A stretch of 64,000 bases of DNA from a phage. Under the pieces are notes generated by a model. That model was not told where the DNA came from. It saw only the letters and a program-made list of their open reading frames with translations, and did no database searches. Position numbers and translations under genes: made by a program. Within the stretch, counting starts at the first letter, position 1. The number at the start of each line of letters is the position of its first letter. The DNA lies in the sequence record NC_100372.1. One strand, 5' to 3'. Shown here one piece after another: positions 33,574 to 51,379 of this stretch.

Positions 33574-33936
33574 CACACAAGTCTGCTTTGCAGGTTTAGC
33601 TGCTCAGCTAAGGTTCTGGAGTCACCTATAACATCTTCCAACTAAATTTCCTACCAACACAGTTACTTACCCACCACACATGACTGTTTGCTTGTTTAGT
33701 GAGCAGTCATCCCTTGACATTCTTGCCTATCTTGATAAAATTAAGTTCTTCTCTTTTCTTTTACCGAGTAATTCGGGTTTTCTGTTCTCTTCGGTTTGAA
33801 GGGGTATGGAGATACACCTGAGTGAACAGGGTGAACAACCGAACCTTTAGCTATGGCATTAGCATGGCGAAGCGGACGGGTGACGAAAGAGGGGCCGGAG
33901 GACACCAGTCACTGCCATATAGTATATGGGTGATAA

Positions 33937-34476
33937 CCTGAAGAGTCTGAATAAGTGTTTAAGTACCAGTCAGAGGAAAAGGTGAATGGTAGCCGAAGGG
34001 GGAGGGGGGTTTCTTATATCTTTAATTTGTATACTTTATATACACTTGTAAACCAATTCAATTAGGATCTGTTTACCACACAAAGTGGATGGAGACAAAT
34101 ATCACCTATTAAACTTGAATTATTTATAGAAAATACCACAACACCGCTTAAGTCTTTGATTTTACACACAAATCTTACAAATATCCTACCTCCATATTTA
34201 ACATACTTGTAACATATTCCATATCCTACCTGCCTGATCAATTTACTCCCACCACATTCCCACATTTTCCCTGTCTGTACTACCCCACCCCCGCCGGGAG
34301 TCCCGTCATATCTGGCTTTCCAGCAAATATCACACCCACAAATATCATCACCTGAAGAGGGTTTCATCCCATAATACCTGCCTTACCTGAAGAGCGCTTC
34401 ATACACCACCTAAATTTTTTAATTGACCCCTCCCCGCCGCCGGAGAGGTTGGCTTTTCCCACACAGGCCTGAAGAG
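33937..34476. repeat. Four dispersed copies of CCTGAAGAG (about 33937, 34351, 34386, 34468)
   Basis: Read directly from the sequence. Confidence 0.6.
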
Positions 34477-34491
34477 TCAGCCAGAAATATC
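34097..34491. repeat. Five copies of AAATATC(A/C) in a CA-rich stretch
   Basis: Copies near 34097, 34179, 34325, 34340, 34485. Confidence 0.5.
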
Positions 34492-35023
34492 TGAACAGGT
34501 CCAGTTATGCCCCGATTTTGTGCTTGTCCTACAGGAGTGCTGCCCTGTCAGGAGCCGGTAGCGACTGGAGTGCTGCCAGGCGGACGGAATGGGAATACTT
34601 CTCATTTTTATAATAATTCTCAAATATCGAGGCAGTGAGGCAAATTAATAGGCCAGGCCGTTCACACAGTGGCACAACATTTGCAATCTATCTTGTGGGA
34701 GTGAATGAGAATACCTATCATTGTGAGAATGGTTATCATTACGGGCAATTTAACATAATACCTATTATGCGCACCACTGGCGATACATACAGGGATTGAT
34801 AACATGGGTTACTGTTTACGCACATAACAATTATATTTATTACTATTTGTGTGGGATATAGTTAGCAACCAATAGATTAGATATTGACCTGCAGACTTCT
34901 GACCGTCCAGACGTCTAAACGCCCACACAACAAGGATTATACATACATTCCTGAATGTAAACAGGGCCGCAAAAAATGCTACCATACCAGTTTGTAAATT
35001 TTTCATGCAGCACTTGACAAAGA

Positions 35024-35107
35024 GGAGAAAAACTTGTCTGACACAATGTGACAAAATTGCCACTTTTGACACTTTTACCTTTGACACAATATGACACAAT
35101 AACGGCT
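35024..35107. repeat. Array of TTGACA/TGACAC hexamers including three TGACACAAT
   Basis: Six TGACA(A/C) within 85 bp. Confidence 0.6.
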
Positions 35108-35136
35108 GTTACTATTCCATATCTCACTGTTTACGT

Positions 35137-35190
35137 ATAGACTGTTTACGCCTGAATAGTTTACGCCCAAACTGTTTACACAGAGATGAT
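35137..35190. repeat. Tandem CTGTTTAC(G/A) iteron-like repeats x4 (further copies near 34812 and 35583)
   Basis: actgtttacg, actgtttacg, tagtttacg, actgtttaca in series. Confidence 0.6.
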
Positions 35191-35202
35191 AAGCCATGAC
35201 AT

Positions 35203-35432
35203 TCGTTTGCATGAAAACAATTAACAAGTTAATAATATATGACATAATATAAAAGCAGGGCAACTATTAGAAGATCTATAGTTGCCTTGCTTGTTATGTC
35301 ATGATTAACTAAATACAAGGCAACTATGATCTGAATAATAGATTGCAGAAAAACTATCACGGGGGTGATTGTTACTGCTTTTATATTATGTCGCGACTCC
35401 GTCGCGCCATGCCATTCGTTTGCATAGTTGCC
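35203..35432. repeat. Nested symmetry block: 20-bp direct repeat, 15-bp perfect inverted repeat, four GGCAACTAT copies
   Basis: Direct repeat GCCATGNCATTCGTTTGCAT at 35203 and 35406; inverted arms GACATAATATAAAAG at 35251-35265 and 35378-35392; GGCAACTAT at 35269 and 35329 with reverse complements at 35288 and 35424. Confidence 0.65.
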
Positions 35433-36039
35433 TTATTGTTACAGGTAAAACAATTACATTATTAATTATTTCTTATCTTTCTCTTAGTCATCTAATGATT
35501 CCAGTCAGTATAGTAATGTACAGTAAACATTAGACGACTAAAGATTTCTCTGTGTATAATAACTTATCGTGACAATTTCGAACTGTTTACGAAAAATGTT
35601 GACACCTGAGCTGATTTATGTTATGCAGTTTACACGAATAATTATTTTATGCAGGTATTGACTATTCCGTTATTCTGTGGTTGGAATAAATACTTTGCAG
35701 ACTATAGAATGGCGTGCGTACGTGAATTCTGAGATCTGGCGGCTATAGTTATACTCGATTTTTCGCGTAGAACACGCTTTCGATGCTGTGTAAGTGTATG
35801 ACTTATAAAGATTTTTAGTTGTTGACAAGATATTGGAGATGTGCATCAGGTTAAAATTTGTGCAATAGCGGCATTACGTGCACTTTTGGGAGAGAAAACG
35901 GGTAAAAATGGCCCTGCTACCACACAATGAAAGATTATGCAATGGTTATTTTCCATGTATATTTGTACAGTATGTGGGATTGATGGCTAGTCAATTATTC
36001 CACTTGCCAGGTAGGGCCGTTTATGGTAGGAGAAGAGCA

Positions 36040-36068
36040 GACAAAAAGAAAGGGGCCTTTAAGCCCCT
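36040..36068 (-). terminator. Intrinsic terminator for the leftward block (AAGGGGC-loop-GCCCCTT with U-run on the minus strand)
   Basis: Hairpin followed on the minus strand by TTTCTTTTT, just downstream of gene 36088..36507. Confidence 0.5.
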
Positions 36069-36087
36069 TGATAATTCAGTTAAGAAA

Positions 36088-36507
36088 TTATAATGATTCG
36101 TATATTTCAAAAATCCGATTTGCCAGGTCGTTACGGTAGCGGAATTTTTCATCGCGCTTGATCATTAAATCCTTATAGCCGTACTCTTTAAGCACTTCAT
36201 TAACTTTATAGCGGCATACCTGCATATTATCTTGAGCGTCACCAATAAACTTGTTGCTGTGGTGCATTGCTTTAATTTCTTCTTCCAGGACCAGGGCAAC
36301 TACCCGGACCGGATCAAGCTGGTAGGCGGTAACATCTATGCGGCATTGTAGACGGCTTTTAACGTCTGCCACCGGATATACTGCAACCTCTTCCCCGTCA
36401 ACATTGACAATAATTAGTTTACCATCGATTTCGAATCCTTTCGCCGCCGGACCGTGACAAAAAGCGTTATCAAAGCTATATGCCGGATTATCAGATTTAA
36501 TGTTCAT
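36088..36507 (-). CDS. Hypothetical protein
   Basis: ORF with upstream promoter. Confidence 0.5.
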   Translation of the reverse strand: MNIKSDNPAYSFDNAFCHGPAAKGFEIDGKLIIVNVDGEEVAVYPVADVKSRLQCRIDVTAYQLDPVRVVALVLEEEIKAMHHSNKFIGDAQDNMQVCRYKVNEVLKEYGYKDLMIKRDEKFRYRNDLANRIFEIYESL

Positions 36508-37252: not shown

Positions 37253-37525
37253 TTACTTACGGCGGCAGAATTCAAGCGTTTTTAATTGATAATCTTCCTC
37301 AGCCTGAAGTACAACCGCCTCGATCATTTCGTTGGCATTGTTGAAGCCATACCCTTTAGCGAACTCGTCCGCACCACCTTCGTGATCATGTTCTGCGTTC
37401 ATCGCTTCCACGAAATGGAATTCAAGATTATTGAGATAAGGGCTTGATGTTCCGTCCTCTTTTTCGATGAGATCCCAAATAGTATTAAAACGTGATTCGA
37501 CTTCTTGGTTAATCCAGCTTAACAT
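37253..37525 (-). CDS. Hypothetical acidic protein
   Basis: ORF. Confidence 0.5.
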   Translation of the reverse strand: MLSWINQEVESRFNTIWDLIEKEDGTSSPYLNNLEFHFVEAMNAEHDHEGGADEFAKGYGFNNANEMIEAVVLQAEEDYQLKTLEFCRRK

Positions 37526-37632
37526 GGCGTTTTCCTCTCTTCTGGTTGTTGTGTGGGCACTTTTGCCCCTTCAAGATAAATGTTACCCCACCGCCTGGCA
37601 GGTGTCAACGGTTTTTATAGTTTTTTATATGA

Positions 37633-37676
37633 CAGGCACCCCCGGTGATTGTCTCCCCCCGTCGCCAGGTGCCTGC
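37633..37676 (-). repeat. Conserved GC-rich element, reverse-orientation copy (core GGGAGACAATCACCGGGGGTGCC)
   Basis: Reverse complement matches the elements at 45328 and 45461. Confidence 0.6.
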
Positions 37677-37737
37677 CGTGAAACAAGTATAACAAAAAAC
37701 AGGACCATTACAAGCCCTGTTTTATGGTTTATAAAGA

Positions 37738-37929
37738 TTATATTTTTTCGCCTATATAGTCCGGTCGGTTTTTCTCTGTCATACGCTTAAGCAATTCTTG
37801 CATGTTGCTTATGGCTTGCAGTGTATCCTCTTCAAGGGATGAATCGAGATAATCAGGATCATTCTTCACCTTGCAATGGTTATGGTAACGTAGTACTGCC
37901 AGTACTTTTTTAACTTCTTCTGCTGTCAT
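37738..37929 (-). CDS. Hypothetical protein
   Basis: ORF. Confidence 0.4.
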   Translation of the reverse strand: MTAEEVKKVLAVLRYHNHCKVKNDPDYLDSSLEEDTLQAISNMQELLKRMTEKNRPDYIGEKI

Positions 37930-42189: not shown

Positions 42190-42263
42190 GATATTTTCTC
42201 CTGTTTTCTTTATTAGTGGCGGGAAGTTTTCCCGCCTGTGTGTTTAATTATACTTATTGAGAT

Positions 42264-44121: not shown

Positions 44122-44140
44122 GATCTTTTTCCTTTGTGTT

Positions 44141-44165
44141 GGCGGGAAACATTCCCGCCTTTTGT
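44141..44165 (+). other. Hairpin GGCGGGAA-ACAT-TTCCCGCC with T-run on the plus strand only
   Basis: Sits in the 5-prime leader of a minus-strand gene; near-identical hairpin at about 42203-42222. Confidence 0.4.
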
Positions 44166-45121: not shown

Positions 45122-45327
45122 TTTTGTACCTCCTCTTCAATTGTTACCTGCCCTGTAGCATAGGCCTACCAGGTTTGCAAGCTTTCACTCTCTCCTACCT
45201 GGTCAGTCAGGTCCTGCCAGGCTGGCCCCGCCAGGTTGCAGCGGTTGGTGTATTATGTTAGAAAAAATTTTTGAAGAAGTGTTGACAGCGGCCCCGCCAG
45301 GTGGCACAATATACCTATCGAAAGGAC

Positions 45328-45398
45328 GGCAGGCACCGGTGACGGGGGAGACAACCACCGGGGATGGGCGCTGCATAAAATGAGAACGGTTATCATTA
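45328..45398 (+). repeat. Conserved module copy 1: GC-rich element (GGCAGGCACC..GGGAGACAACCACCGGGG) followed by GAGAACGGTTATCATT
   Basis: Read directly; a second copy lies 135 bp downstream and a third element in reverse orientation at 37633. Confidence 0.6.
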
Positions 45399-45460
45399 TC
45401 ATTTAAAAATTTATGCAAAAAATCCTTGCTTTCTTTGTCCTGTGTGATACTATAATAACA

Positions 45461-45533
45461 AGCCGGGGCAACAGGGGCCGGGAGACAATCACCGGGGGTG
45501 CCCGTTATTCTGCAAACGAGAATGATTATCATT
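45461..45533 (+). repeat. Conserved module copy 2: GGGAGACAATCACCGGGGGTGCC followed by GAGAATGATTATCATT
   Basis: 21-bp core identical to the reverse complement of 37641-37661. Confidence 0.6.
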
Positions 45534-45663
45534 CAAAATTCTAAATGAGAACTTTTCGCATTTCATAAATTTAGTTAGCATGCTAATTACCTACCGTGAC
45601 AATTCTATATAAAATAATACCTCCTTAAATATTTCCATATACAAATTTTAAAAATCCATTTCC

Positions 45664-45830
45664 GAAAACGAAAAATCGATTTCGTCCCCAAAAATTTCAG
45701 GTCGAGCTCCGGAACGATTTCCAGAAAATCTGATTCAGAAAACGAAAAACAGATCGAGTACTAAGAAATTTATCGAGAAAAATTTTCAGAAAATTCAATC
45801 TTTGAAACGAAAAACAGATCGAGTACTGAG
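45664..45830. repeat. Three degenerate tandem repeats (about 70 bp) with core GAAAACGAAAAACAGATCGAGTACT
   Basis: Cores at about 45664, 45738, 45804. Confidence 0.55.
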
Positions 45831-46138
45831 AGAGATGTATCAAAACCTGCTGAGAATAATGGGTTTATTGTTATAAAGGGTCAAAGGTAAGCTGGGAAAG
45901 TTCCGGTAGAAGGGTGAGAGTATGTGCGGAAAATCTGGAATAGTAACTTAAAGTACGGTGCGAACGATAGAATGAGCAGCACATCTTATCGCGCCTGTCT
46001 TGAAAAATCCATTTTAGTTTTCGATCCATTTTCTGATTTTCTAAGAATTTTAAAATATCCGGCTAGGTAAAATATCAAAAGGAGGAAATCCATTTTAGAA
46101 ATCCTCCTTATACTTGATGTGCCAGGGATTTTCAAGTA

Positions 46139-49676: not shown

Positions 49677-50903
49677 TTAAAAAGGTATGTCATCATCAAA
49701 GGCGTACTGTGCCGGATTCTGATCCATCGGGTCGTCTTCCGCATCATCTACAGGAGGAGCGTCTACAGTGTTTTGCTGTGGGGCGGCTTCCTGTTTGGCA
49801 GCTTGAGGCTCTTGATGGTCAGTGGCTCCAGCACCGTTCTTGATCCAATCATACAACGGTTCAGCAAGATTAGTCAAGACATCTTTTGCCTCTGCAGTAA
49901 TTGCTACTGCAAAATCATCAACTTTCGTTTTCTTGTCAATACGGCGACAAGCGTTCAATACCGCATTACCAACACTGGCACCTACTTCATCTTCAGTTCG
50001 GTTAGTGGCTTGAGCGTACTCTTTCTTAAGCTCGATGGTGACCACGTGCAGTGTTTTAGCCACATCTAAAGGGCTGTCAATCTTAAACCCGCGATCCAGG
50101 ATGATCTGCAATGCATTGATACTGTGCCCTGTCTCTACACCGATGGGGTCGTAAGAGGATTTACGCTTACCACCAGAACCTTGTGTACCGTTCTCTGCTT
50201 TAGGCGGGTAGGCCTTGAAGCCGCTGATAATATTCCCGGTGTCTTTGTCAACAATAGCTGCAACACGACCACCTACCACCAGGTCTTTAAGCTGCTCATC
50301 AGAGACAACCATAGCACCTTCACCAATCTTGTGATCATTGACAGTAACCACGTTGCCAACAATCTGAGTCACATCGCCATAGATGCGTAAAACGTCCTGA
50401 TTGGCATTCTGCTGAGGTTTCTGCTTCTGGCCTTGTGATTGTGCACCTTGTTGCTGTTTTTGCTGCTGAGTCGCTGCTGGAGCCTCTCCTGCACCCAGCT
50501 TGACCATCTTAGCCAGGGAGCCTTTGTAATAGGTCTTACCGTTATGCTCGTTTGCCTTCAAAGGGATATTTACGATCCATCCTGGCGTTACAGTTTCCCA
50601 CTTGTCATCAATTTTAACAGAGACAGAGTCTTGATGACCCGGTTTAAGCAGCTTATCACCCATACTGATCCAAACTTCTTCACCACCTTGAAGCAGGTTA
50701 TCAGAGGAATCCAGTTCAGAAATCAGTAAAGAGATGGTGTGGCTGGATTCAATTTTCTTACCTTGCCACACAGTGGTTTTAATACCTGTTGTAGGATCAG
50801 CACCTTTGATAGGCTTGATGCTGACACGTTTAATCATGCCGTGAGCCAGTAAAACAGTTTCACGCGGATTCATCGGGTTAGCGAATTGTTGAATAACGCT
50901 CAT
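49677..50903 (-). CDS. Single-stranded DNA-binding protein-like (long form)
   Basis: C-terminal acidic tail ending DDDIPF, as in bacterial SSB; Gln/Gly-rich linker. Confidence 0.55.
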   Translation of the reverse strand: MSVIQQFANPMNPRETVLLAHGMIKRVSIKPIKGADPTTGIKTTVWQGKKIESSHTISLLISELDSSDNLLQGGEEVWISMGDKLLKPGHQDSVSVKIDDKWETVTPGWIVNIPLKANEHNGKTYYKGSLAKMVKLGAGEAPAATQQQKQQQGAQSQGQKQKPQQNANQDVLRIYGDVTQIVGNVVTVNDHKIGEGAMVVSDEQLKDLVVGGRVAAIVDKDTGNIISGFKAYPPKAENGTQGSGGKRKSSYDPIGVETGHSINALQIILDRGFKIDSPLDVAKTLHVVTIELKKEYAQATNRTEDEVGASVGNAVLNACRRIDKKTKVDDFAVAITAEAKDVLTNLAEPLYDWIKNGAGATDHQEPQAAKQEAAPQQNTVDAPPVDDAEDDPMDQNPAQYAFDDDIPF

Positions 50904-51379
50904 TATTTATCTCCTTGTTCTTCGTTAGTGTTTGCCGTGTGTGCAAACCCTGCTTGAATTAATTTGTCCTGAACTTGAGCCAACAGGCCCATTGCAAAAC
51001 TTGTGGTCCCAGAGAGGGCCATCAGCATATCTCGTTGTTGAGCTACCCAACCTAAGGCATAGTCCAAACGACGATATTTTTCTTCTTCACGCAGAGCCTG
51101 GAATAATTGTTCAGCCTCTGGCTGTTGTGTAAGCTCCTGAAGTCTTCCCATGAAAGAAGAAAGCACTAGCAGAAGAGACACTTGATCTTTACTTAACCCT
51201 AAGAAAAATTCTTGAGGTTGTTCTTGCTCGTTCATCGCAACCGACGCTTGATCGTTCATTTGTTCCATTATGGAATCTCCGATTTTATTTGAACAACATA
51301 GAAGGAGACACCATTTTAGCATCTCCTTCTGCAAATTACAACAGGTATTTGTTAGCCAATTACTTCGAAAGTACCCCAA
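50903..51379 (-). CDS. Hypothetical protein
   Basis: Coupled ORF. Confidence 0.5.
   Translation of the reverse strand: MGYFRSNWLTNTCCNLQKEMLKWCLLLCCSNKIGDSIMEQMNDQASVAMNEQEQPQEFFLGLSKDQVSLLLVLSSFMGRLQELTQQPEAEQLFQALREEEKYRRLDYALGWVAQQRDMLMALSGTTSFAMGLLAQVQDKLIQAGFAHTANTNEEQGDK

Follow-up and report, generated by a model that had tools for sequence, protein, structure and literature searches.

We analyzed a repeated non-coding module in a 64,000-nucleotide stretch of DNA (sequence record NC_100372.1; here called the window) from an rV5-like coliphage of the genus Vequintavirus. The genes between 36 and 64 kb of the window are oriented on the minus strand. Two copies of the module, A and B, occupy a non-coding island at positions 45122-45870, and a third, module C, is found 7.8 kb away on the other strand, where it heads a block of early genes. 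Each copy consists of a predicted σ70-type promoter followed by a GC-rich element. In modules A and B the element is followed in turn by an AT-rich motif that resembles the operator of the host regulator Fur. The module is conserved across several genera of phages, and the RNA that it may produce would be a promoter-proximal leader or small RNA placed under the control of Fur.

The repeat had been noticed in an earlier reading of the same DNA (the original prediction), which described a 21-bp exact match at three sites. Exact identity proved to be confined to two: the 23-mer GGGAGACAATCACCGGGGGTGCC is shared by copies B (plus strand) and C (minus strand), copy A (45346-45368, GGGAGACAACCACCGGGGATGGG) differs from it by more than 3 mismatches, and the core common to all three copies is only GGGAGACAAYCACCGG. 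No other site in the window matched the 23-mer with 3 or fewer mismatches, and the repeat gave 0 matches in 100 shuffles. A covariance model built from 23 homologues recognized exactly three copies in the window (scores of 60, 50 and 33 bits for B, C and A, respectively), all of which were in its training set. The next match (50888-50942, 17 bits) falls on a gene start and was attributed to chance. The remaining geometry was as predicted. The tandem copies are spaced by 134 to 136 bp, against an expected distance of about 135 bp, and copy C, on the opposite strand, is enclosed by a perfect 8-bp inverted repeat (CAGGCACC at 37634-37641 and GGTGCCTG at 37668-37675), which reaches 10 bp if one G.T pair is allowed. 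The AT-rich motif GAGAAYGRTTATCATT is present at 45382 and 45518 and, as had been reported, also at 34725 in a large non-coding hub; a fourth version, GAGAATACCTATCATT, starts at 34707.

Modules A and B represent a tandem duplication of a whole unit of approximately 140 bp, which comprises an A-tract, the promoter, the GC-rich element and the AT box. This duplication is old and under selection. Columns of the three-module alignment are on average 69% identical, and both copies are kept nearly unchanged between variable flanks in the four relatives that span them (rV5 and three metagenome/IMG-VR contigs), so that a recent duplication and an assembly artifact are both rejected.

Conservation and promoter association

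About 260 phage records matched the region in BLAST searches. Beyond Vequintavirus, the match was to module B only, which is found at a syntenic non-coding locus in Seunavirus, Mydovirus, Certrevirus, Stephanstirmvirinae, the Aeromonas phages of Plateaulakevirus and a Pseudomonas phage of Otagovirus. Among the rV5-like phages module B is near-invariant and its flanks vary. We fetched loci from all of these groups and from unclassified Vequintavirinae, together with IMG/VR and metagenome contigs, the pattern scans of which contributed few sequences. In most loci the same order was seen: a σ70-type promoter, CACATRGCG, a variable GC-rich stretch, the invariant GAGACAAWCACC, then CCTGCCYGYYATTC and one to four AT-rich palindromes. 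Three direct repeats of approximately 78 bp come next in most loci of the Vequintavirinae and, in a weaker form, in the Aeromonas phages; they were not seen in the loci of phAPEC8, the Klebsiella Stephanstirmvirinae and the Pseudomonas phage. A further promoter separates the palindromes from the direct repeats in Seunavirus, Mydovirus and TH18. Some 17 to 19 records labeled "Campylobacter phage" (MG0656xx) are more than 90% identical to the rV5-like coliphage region, and their host label looks doubtful.

Second copies were also encountered elsewhere. The Certrevirus phages CR8 and KaOmega carry another promoter plus element, with one AT box, 10 to 11 kb from the first and oriented as the flanking genes, which makes it the analogue of window copy C. 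From one phage to the next, unrelated genes lie downstream of these second copies. A small plus-strand coding sequence (CDS) of 60 to 94 amino acids is located 200 to 400 bp upstream of the module in other genera (fetched locus L003, 1097-1279; L010-L012 and L014-L017, ~450-900). These CDSs fall into four or more unrelated families and are missing from the window, and we discarded them as a part of the module; the arrangement looks like a variable gene slot beside a fixed non-coding module. It follows that what is conserved is the non-coding module itself, which is generic and not gene-specific. A scan of 185,579 bacterial genomes with the core returned only 7 matches, all in unrelated taxa and close to the number estimated for chance, and a host chromosomal homologue was therefore rejected. 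We found no published description of the GC-rich element, or of Fur-operator arrays in these or other virulent phages, in full-text searches of the literature, and the genome papers on rV5 and Certrevirus are silent on both. The module thus appears to be undescribed so far.

In each window copy the GC-rich core lies about 25 to 31 nt downstream of a predicted σ70-type promoter on its own strand, and such a promoter precedes almost every copy in every genus at a near-fixed distance. This ties each copy to a transcript start, as the original prediction had proposed that one should look for. Across all genera, the promoters at the homologous position read TTGMNN-16/17-TATTAT. The module B promoter was missed by our promoter scan because its spacer exceeds 18 nt; its -35 hexamer TTGCTT recurs in phAPEC8, there with a 16-nt spacer. 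GTGTTGACA of module A agrees with AAAA(N3)TGTTGAC, the consensus of a shared σ70-like early promoter described for Certrevirus in the CB7 paper (PMC7344957). Reliance on host-type promoters has been reported for these phages (PMC3606486; PMC7344957), and σ70-type promoters were noted in the rV5 paper (PMC3606486). The module C promoter overlaps the terminator (37723-37696) of the upstream minus-strand gene, and copy C is oriented as the early genes that flank it.

Of the approximately 30 to 40 candidate early-type promoters in intergenic DNA of the window, only 3 carry the element. Since the invariant loop is restricted to these three early promoters, a specific partner is implied. Several other σ70-type early promoters on the minus strand (~42215-42240, ~44140-44165 and ~37555-37575) are followed after 10 to 16 nt by a small GC hairpin that precedes the ribosome-binding site (e.g., GGCGGGAAAACTTCCCGCC, GGCGGGAATGTTTCCCGCC and GGGGCAAAAGTGCCC); early transcripts of this phage appear, as a rule, to carry a stem-loop in the 5' leader. 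A CCWGG-containing motif, CYGCCAGG/CCTGG, also recurs in or beside promoter spacers (45160-45306, 37590-37604, 35991-36012 and 36107-36128; e.g., TTGACAGCGGCCCCGCCAGGTGG and TTGACACCTGCCAGGCGG) and is found at the module promoter of relatives (TTGCAACCTGGGG). Either a phage-specific promoter element or clustered Dcm sites could explain this motif.

The GC-rich element and the Fur-type boxes

We examined the GC-rich element for pairing in the aligned homologues. Support emerged for one 6-bp helix, P1a (AURGCG/YGYYAU), which was paired in 84.8% of cells, compared with 25 to 59% in slid controls. It starts 6 to 7 nt past the -10 hexamer, at about +1, and its register extends to 10 bp in copy C. 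Pair 10-57 is GC in 8 sequences, AU in 7 and GU in 6. G.U cells outnumber A.C cells by 23 to 12 overall and by 14 to 2 in the well-aligned rows, and therefore the pairing favors the promoter strand. The interior of the element differs by lineage (CCCGG/CCGGG in Certrevirus, CGG/CCG in Seunavirus), and the 5' half varies in sequence and length yet stays GC-rich and complementary to the 3' half. The spacing between the anchors of the element varies by non-multiples of three, which indicates that it is non-coding. Taken together, the thermodynamic and covariation support for the fold is modest, and the element probably acts in RNA, a view that is favored but not established.

The element could not be assigned to a known class. 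Rfam gave no match at the gathering threshold in the window and none over the element at an E value of ≤10 in the window and 11 homologous loci; ARAGORN found no tRNA in the window, and by eye we saw no boxA-like sequence. The invariant loop had 14 matches in the window with ≤2 mismatches, compared with about 10 expected, and the close ones were only the three copies, so no trans target emerged. Resemblances to ToxI, CRISPR I-F repeats, RyhB or its targets, CsrA sites, preQ1-I tails and MntR boxes, judged by eye, were weak or not kept across the copies, and all were dropped. In Pseudomonas phage Astolliot (locus L024, 801-870) the loop GAGACAAAC is followed 15 nt on by its perfect complement, GTTTGTCTC, which locks the motif in a 9-bp hairpin, unlike in all other lineages.

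The AT-rich motif is of a different kind. Its consensus, AAATGAGAAT-N-ATTMTCATTY, contains TGAGAAT-N-ATTMTCA, which departs by one base per half from the 7-1-7 Fur sequence TGATAAT-N-ATTATCA. We scanned the whole window with the 19-bp Fur consensus GATAATGATAATCATTATC, for which real sites score at about 11 to 16 of 19. The three AT motifs at 45382 (16/19, the single best site), 45518 (15/19) and 34725 (15/19) were the best matches in the window and three of the five sites that reached 15/19, and 59 sites scored at least 13/19, compared with about 24 in shuffles. The motifs form 7-1-7 inverted repeats (TGAGAAT-G-ATTATCA and GAATGAT-T-ATCATTC) and overlapping 19-mers in steps of +6 (45376/82/88, 45512/18 and 34701/07/19/25); box A of rV5 scores 17/19. 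GATAATGAGAATCATTATT and TGTAATGATAACCATTCTC are both on a published list of iron boxes (PMC10665472), and the second agrees with 34725-34743 at 18 of 19 positions. Variants of the motif lack the compensation expected of an RNA hairpin (e.g., GCGAATGGTTATC), which fits a protein-binding site. The AT-rich motif is thus a look-alike of the host Fur operator, a putative site as judged by its sequence.

Fur-type boxes also accompany the element outside the window. One to four sites follow it in 20 of 21 annotated-record loci. Across these 21 loci, 45 sites of at least 14/19 lay within 160 nt downstream of the element and 3 elsewhere, a density about 175-fold higher, of which only the additional boxes are independent evidence because the loci were fetched by similarity that included the first box. 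A box is found 10 to 45 nt past the element in copies A and B and in the second copies of Certrevirus. The boxes persist in the Aeromonas phages and are recognizable but weaker (<14/19) in the Pseudomonas phage. These hosts have the same Fur box in common. Relative to the strong plus-strand promoters the boxes sit at approximately +55 to +130; in copy B only, they also overlap a weak candidate promoter on the minus strand, TTGAAT-18-CAGAAT.

These results bear on how the repeat was first described. The observation was real but overstated, and it is partly confirmed. The proposed pairing of GC-rich and AT-rich elements holds as a conserved module, within which the GC core and the AT motif are different kinds of site. 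Likewise, the idea of a phage-specific regulatory site survives as a conserved regulatory or non-coding module, the AT motif of which is not specific to the phage but resembles an operator of the host. Evidence for a processing signal was not obtained.

TABLE 1 Features of the three modules and related sites (window coordinates; promoters and operators are predictions)
Feature	Position	Strand	Description and basis
Module A promoter	45258..45310	+	A/T tract; -35 TTGACA 45282-45287; 17-nt CCAGG-rich spacer; -10 CACAAT 45305-45310, preceded by TG; promoter scan, 10/12 matches
GC-rich element, copy A (diverged)	45322..45379	+	Core GGGAGACAACCACCGG 45346-45361; inner stem CCGGTG/CACCGG; covariance model, 32.9 bits; minimum free energy -20.1 kcal/mol, z -2.3
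Fur-type operator array A (putative)	45376..45406		19-mers at 45376, 45382 and 45388 (6-bp phase); best GATAATGATAACCGTTCTC, 16/19; consensus scan
Module B promoter	45426..45456	+	-35 TTGCTT 45426-45431; 19-nt spacer; perfect -10 TATAAT 45451-45456; read from sequence
GC-rich element, copy B (ancestral, kept across genera)	45454..45513	+	Core 23-mer 45480-45502; stem GGGCA/TGCCC; invariant GAGACAATCACC; covariance model, 60.2 bits
Fur-type operator array B (putative)	45507..45562		19-mers at 45512 and 45518 (15/19); perfect palindrome GAATGAT-T-ATCATTC; degenerate third box 45543-45562
Weak promoter reading over array B	45536-45531 and 45512-45507	-	TTGAAT 45536-45531, 18 nt, CAGAAT 45512-45507; read from sequence
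Second promoter-like site near array B	45566-45538	-	Promoter scan
Three diverged direct repeats (~65-78 bp)	45651..45831		Each with A/T tract, small variable hairpin and (A)GATCGAGTAC
Module C promoter	37686..37713	-	TTGTAA, 16 nt, TATACT with TG; promoter scan
GC-rich element, copy C	37624..37683	-	10-bp closing stem, GGCAGGCACC (37677-37668) with GGTGCCTGTC (37641-37632); core 23-mer 37657-37635; covariance model, 49.8 bits; minimum free energy -24.6 to -27.3 kcal/mol, z -2.8 to -3.1
Two adjoining Fur-type boxes in the large non-coding hub (putative)	34701..34743		GAGAATACCTATCATT and GAGAATGGTTATCATT; minus strand CGTAATGATAACCATTCTC equals a published iron box at 18/19 positions

A proposed Fur-gated transcript and the alternatives

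The reading that we favor, with a probability of roughly 45%, is that of a conserved phage-borne non-coding module in which host Fur gates the output of a promoter-proximal leader or small RNA. The analysis shows how the module is built, that it is conserved, that it is associated with promoters, that its AT motif matches the Fur consensus and that wobble pairs are biased to one strand. We infer that an RNA is made and folds, that Fur binds and that the module controls transcription in the following way. Host RNA polymerase would start at the module promoters early in infection and produce a 5'-structured leader or a small RNA. The GC-rich segment of about 50 nt, from approximately +1, would fold as an imperfect stem-loop, hiding the 5' end and exposing the invariant GAGACAAWCACC, and the conserved loop could serve as the recognition surface for a partner. 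The order of promoter, element and Fur box, seen in copies A and B and in the second copies of Certrevirus, suggests that Fur gates elongation: iron-loaded Fur at +55 to +130 could act as a roadblock to the extension of the transcript. In copy B, Fur could also shut the weak convergent promoter, so that an iron-dependent antisense transcript is possible. The output of the locus would thus depend on the iron status of the host.

Several observations weigh against this reading. On the RNA side, the shuffle controls for covariation were borderline (23/500) with sequences that are phylogenetically clustered, RNAalifold returned no consensus structure for the 23-sequence alignment, and the second helix was paired in only 56% of cells. 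The mean folding z score is weak (plus strand, -0.84; minus strand, -0.49), and only CR8, KaOmega and the window copies winC and winA stand out. An intrinsic terminator was not found downstream of the element on the plus strand in the window, PVP-SE1 or CR8, and a discrete small RNA would therefore have no predicted 3' end; in phAPEC8, the element is followed only by a weak AUUCU/AGAAU hairpin without a U run. In the Aeromonas 2L372X/PAc lineage the Fur boxes and CCTGCC are kept and GAGACAAWCACC is absent. On the Fur side, operators normally overlap the promoter that they repress, and the boxes here are positioned downstream of a strong promoter, not over it. No Fur box follows copy C, and a match to the consensus is not in itself proof of binding.

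A broader version of this reading, which we consider doubtful, takes the locus as ancestral to the whole clade (Vequintavirinae, Stephanstirmvirinae, Plateaulakevirus and Otagovirus, with hosts from Escherichia to Aeromonas and Pseudomonas). An unclassified promoter-proximal structured RNA, coupled to operators for host Fur, would then sense iron and set early transcription or replication.

The best placed of the competing explanations, in our view unlikely, treats the GC core as a DNA operator. A phage-encoded DNA-binding protein would occupy positions +20 to +45 at selected early promoters, for instance to shut them off, and the helix would be incidental. Such an operator would account for the invariance of GAGACAAWCACC and CCTGCC in the face of weak fold thermodynamics, for the nearly fixed distance from the -10 hexamer and for the restriction of the element to phages, the bacterial matches being at chance level. 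Conversely, the core is neither palindromic nor repeated, unlike most operators, and this explanation leaves aside the covariation of pair 10-57, the bias of G.U pairs to one strand and the complementarity that the variable, GC-rich 5' half retains with the 3' half.

Somewhat less probable still is that the functional transcript is made from the opposite strand. Here, iron limitation would switch on a Fur-repressed promoter, TTGAAT and CAGAAT, in which the Fur box is the 18-nt spacer. Its RNA would start GGUGWUUGUCUC, would be antisense to the promoter-strand RNA and, in rV5-like phages, would form the leader for the genes on its left; together, the face-to-face promoters would constitute an iron-dependent switch. 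A Fur box placed in this way is the classical arrangement, over the -35 and -10 hexamers, which are kept in most enterobacterial phages, and the promoter scan adds a second minus-strand promoter-like site (45566-45538). Moreover, the minus-strand genes left of 45121 need a promoter because of the terminator-like repeats at 45650-45830. However, the hexamers are weak (4/6 each). Neither the Aeromonas phages nor copy A has retained them, and the second copies of Certrevirus and copy C do not have them. The left neighbor is a plus-strand gene in other genera, and the G.U bias favors the other strand.

We regard it as improbable that the locus is a replication origin or a similar DNA-processing site. 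Transcripts from the promoters would then prime or activate replication, the ~78-bp repeats would be iterons and the AT boxes would form an unwinding or host-factor region. The layout of the locus resembles those of the T7 primary origin and T4 ori(uvsY). The tandem promoters, the AT-rich boxes and the three long direct repeats with A-tracts and GATC are arranged alike across genera, and the origin of rV5 is undefined (PMC3606486). Nevertheless, GC skew has no inflection at 45 kb (its sign changes at 33-34 kb and tracks gene orientation), the repeats are absent at copy C and at the second copies of Certrevirus, and no initiator gene is adjacent.

Quite improbable is the proposal that the Fur boxes are decoys, by which replicating phage DNA titrates host Fur and derepresses iron uptake, the GC-rich element being an unrelated promoter leader. 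Each genome does contain several high-quality boxes that cluster in non-coding DNA without an obvious regulated gene, but there are only about 5 to 7 per genome, and their positional coupling to the element in several lineages suggests that they act in cis.

We give very little credence to the repeat being a peptide motif repeated within a protein gene, rV5 gp193/ORF198, here represented by the minus-strand open reading frame (ORF) 45203-45532. Annotations of rV5, where the hypothetical ORF spans copies A and B, and of many relatives include it, and it is open across both copies in all rV5-like phages that we examined. On the other hand, it has no ribosome-binding site (Shine-Dalgarno sequence), its ATG falls inside the Fur palindrome and its C terminus is frame-shifted between close relatives. 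The element is kept in other genera without such an ORF, with length changes that are not multiples of three, and the equivalent ORF at copy C (37467-37790, plus strand) overlaps real genes on the other strand. ORFs run through other GC-rich elements as well (e.g., locus L031, 1277-1555). All of these, gp193 and its relatives included, are probably artifacts of annotation in GC-rich DNA that is poor in stop codons. A tRNA or tRNA remnant, as annotated on the minus strand (tRNA-Met and tRNA-Ile) in the Klebsiella phage record OY978796.1, is refuted by negative ARAGORN results for the annotated locus and the window and by Rfam searches at an E value of ≤10 without a tRNA match. In the Klebsiella phage vB_Kpn_K45PH128C2 (locus L001, 878-1573), tRNA-Lys, tRNA-Ile and tRNA-Met are annotated; the tRNA-Ile and tRNA-Met calls cover the promoter, the element and the Fur boxes, and neither program supports any of the three. 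The annotation of the locus should be corrected accordingly, as both the gp193-type ORFs and the tRNA-Met and tRNA-Ile calls over it are probably spurious.

If Fur does bind, broad-host-range phages of the therapeutic type, such as rV5, phAPEC8 and PVP-SE1, would read the iron status of their hosts, and this would bear directly on their performance at iron-limited infection sites. On temperate phages, toxin and transporter genes are known to be controlled by Fur. The GC-rich element, in turn, would be a new phage RNA or DNA signal.

Surrounding repeats and comparison with known systems

To the right of module B, each of the three direct repeats contains AAAAATTTTT, a small hairpin that keeps its pairing despite a variable sequence, and (C)GATCGAGWAC. 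Read on the minus strand, the hairpins precede T runs and so resemble terminators, and a terminator-like site was called at 45695-45658 (minus strand). Triple repeats also follow the Fur boxes in Seunavirus, Mydovirus, Certrevirus and TH18 (e.g., locus L003, ~1630-1870, and loci L011, L013 and L017). The repeats could be iterons or tandem terminators.

The hub that holds the remaining Fur-type boxes (33900-36100, non-coding) contains many repeat families, among them CTGTTTACG-type iterons (34804-35591), TGACAC(A) repeats (35039-35100) and 18- to 19-bp inverted repeats (35241-35441). GC skew changes sign in the hub, where plus- and minus-strand gene blocks converge. The stretch with the Fur-type boxes is conserved only in Vequintavirus and is a "repeat_region" in the annotation of phage naswa. 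Several Vequintavirus records begin about 60 bp before window position 34640, and terminal redundancies of 458 bp have been reported for HdK5 and EdH4 (PMC6563267). Mapping of the record starts places a physical genome end near 34580 and a terminal-repeat region at approximately 34580-35040. The boxes at 34701-34743 would thus lie about 120 to 165 bp from the mapped end, inside the terminal repeat.

We compared the module with known regulatory systems. The putative phage boxes share with the Fur operators of gamma-proteobacteria (e.g., aerobactin iucA, GATAATGAGAATCATTATT) the 7-1-7 repeat, the 6-bp phasing and scores of 14 to 17 of 19; they differ in being located in virulent genomes, downstream of a strong promoter and with no iron gene nearby. 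For the GC-rich element, one parallel is the 5'-terminal stem-loop that stabilizes mRNA, as in the ompA 5' untranslated region. The predicted helix starts at or within 1 to 2 nt of the predicted transcript start, and other early promoters of the phage are followed by small GC hairpins. However, a simple stabilizer does not need a 12-nt loop that is invariant from Escherichia to Pseudomonas phages.

The nut sites of lambda and P22 (boxA and boxB) and the put sites of HK022 are promoter-proximal RNA signals of lambdoid phages. Like them, the element is a short structured RNA (here predicted) just past early promoters, is present in several copies and both orientations and is generic to the genes that follow. 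Its loop contains GACAA, as does the boxB loop of P22. Unlike them, it has no boxA, no small hairpin of 5 bp with a pentaloop and no Rfam match, and no N-like protein was identified. The face-to-face promoter switches of coliphage 186 (pR/pL) and P22 (ant/sar) recall copy B, where a strong promoter and a weak one predicted to face it about 50 bp away would give overlapping transcripts. In the phage module the convergent promoter is a weak match to the consensus and is not present in all lineages.

Finally, PrrF1 and PrrF2 of Pseudomonas are tandem small RNA genes controlled by Fur; each has a Fur box over its promoter and an intrinsic terminator at the end of its RNA. In the phage the box follows the RNA element, no terminator was seen and there is no sequence similarity. 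What the two loci have in common is a tandem duplication, at a distance of about 100 to 140 bp, of a small structured RNA, here a candidate, that is coupled with a Fur box.

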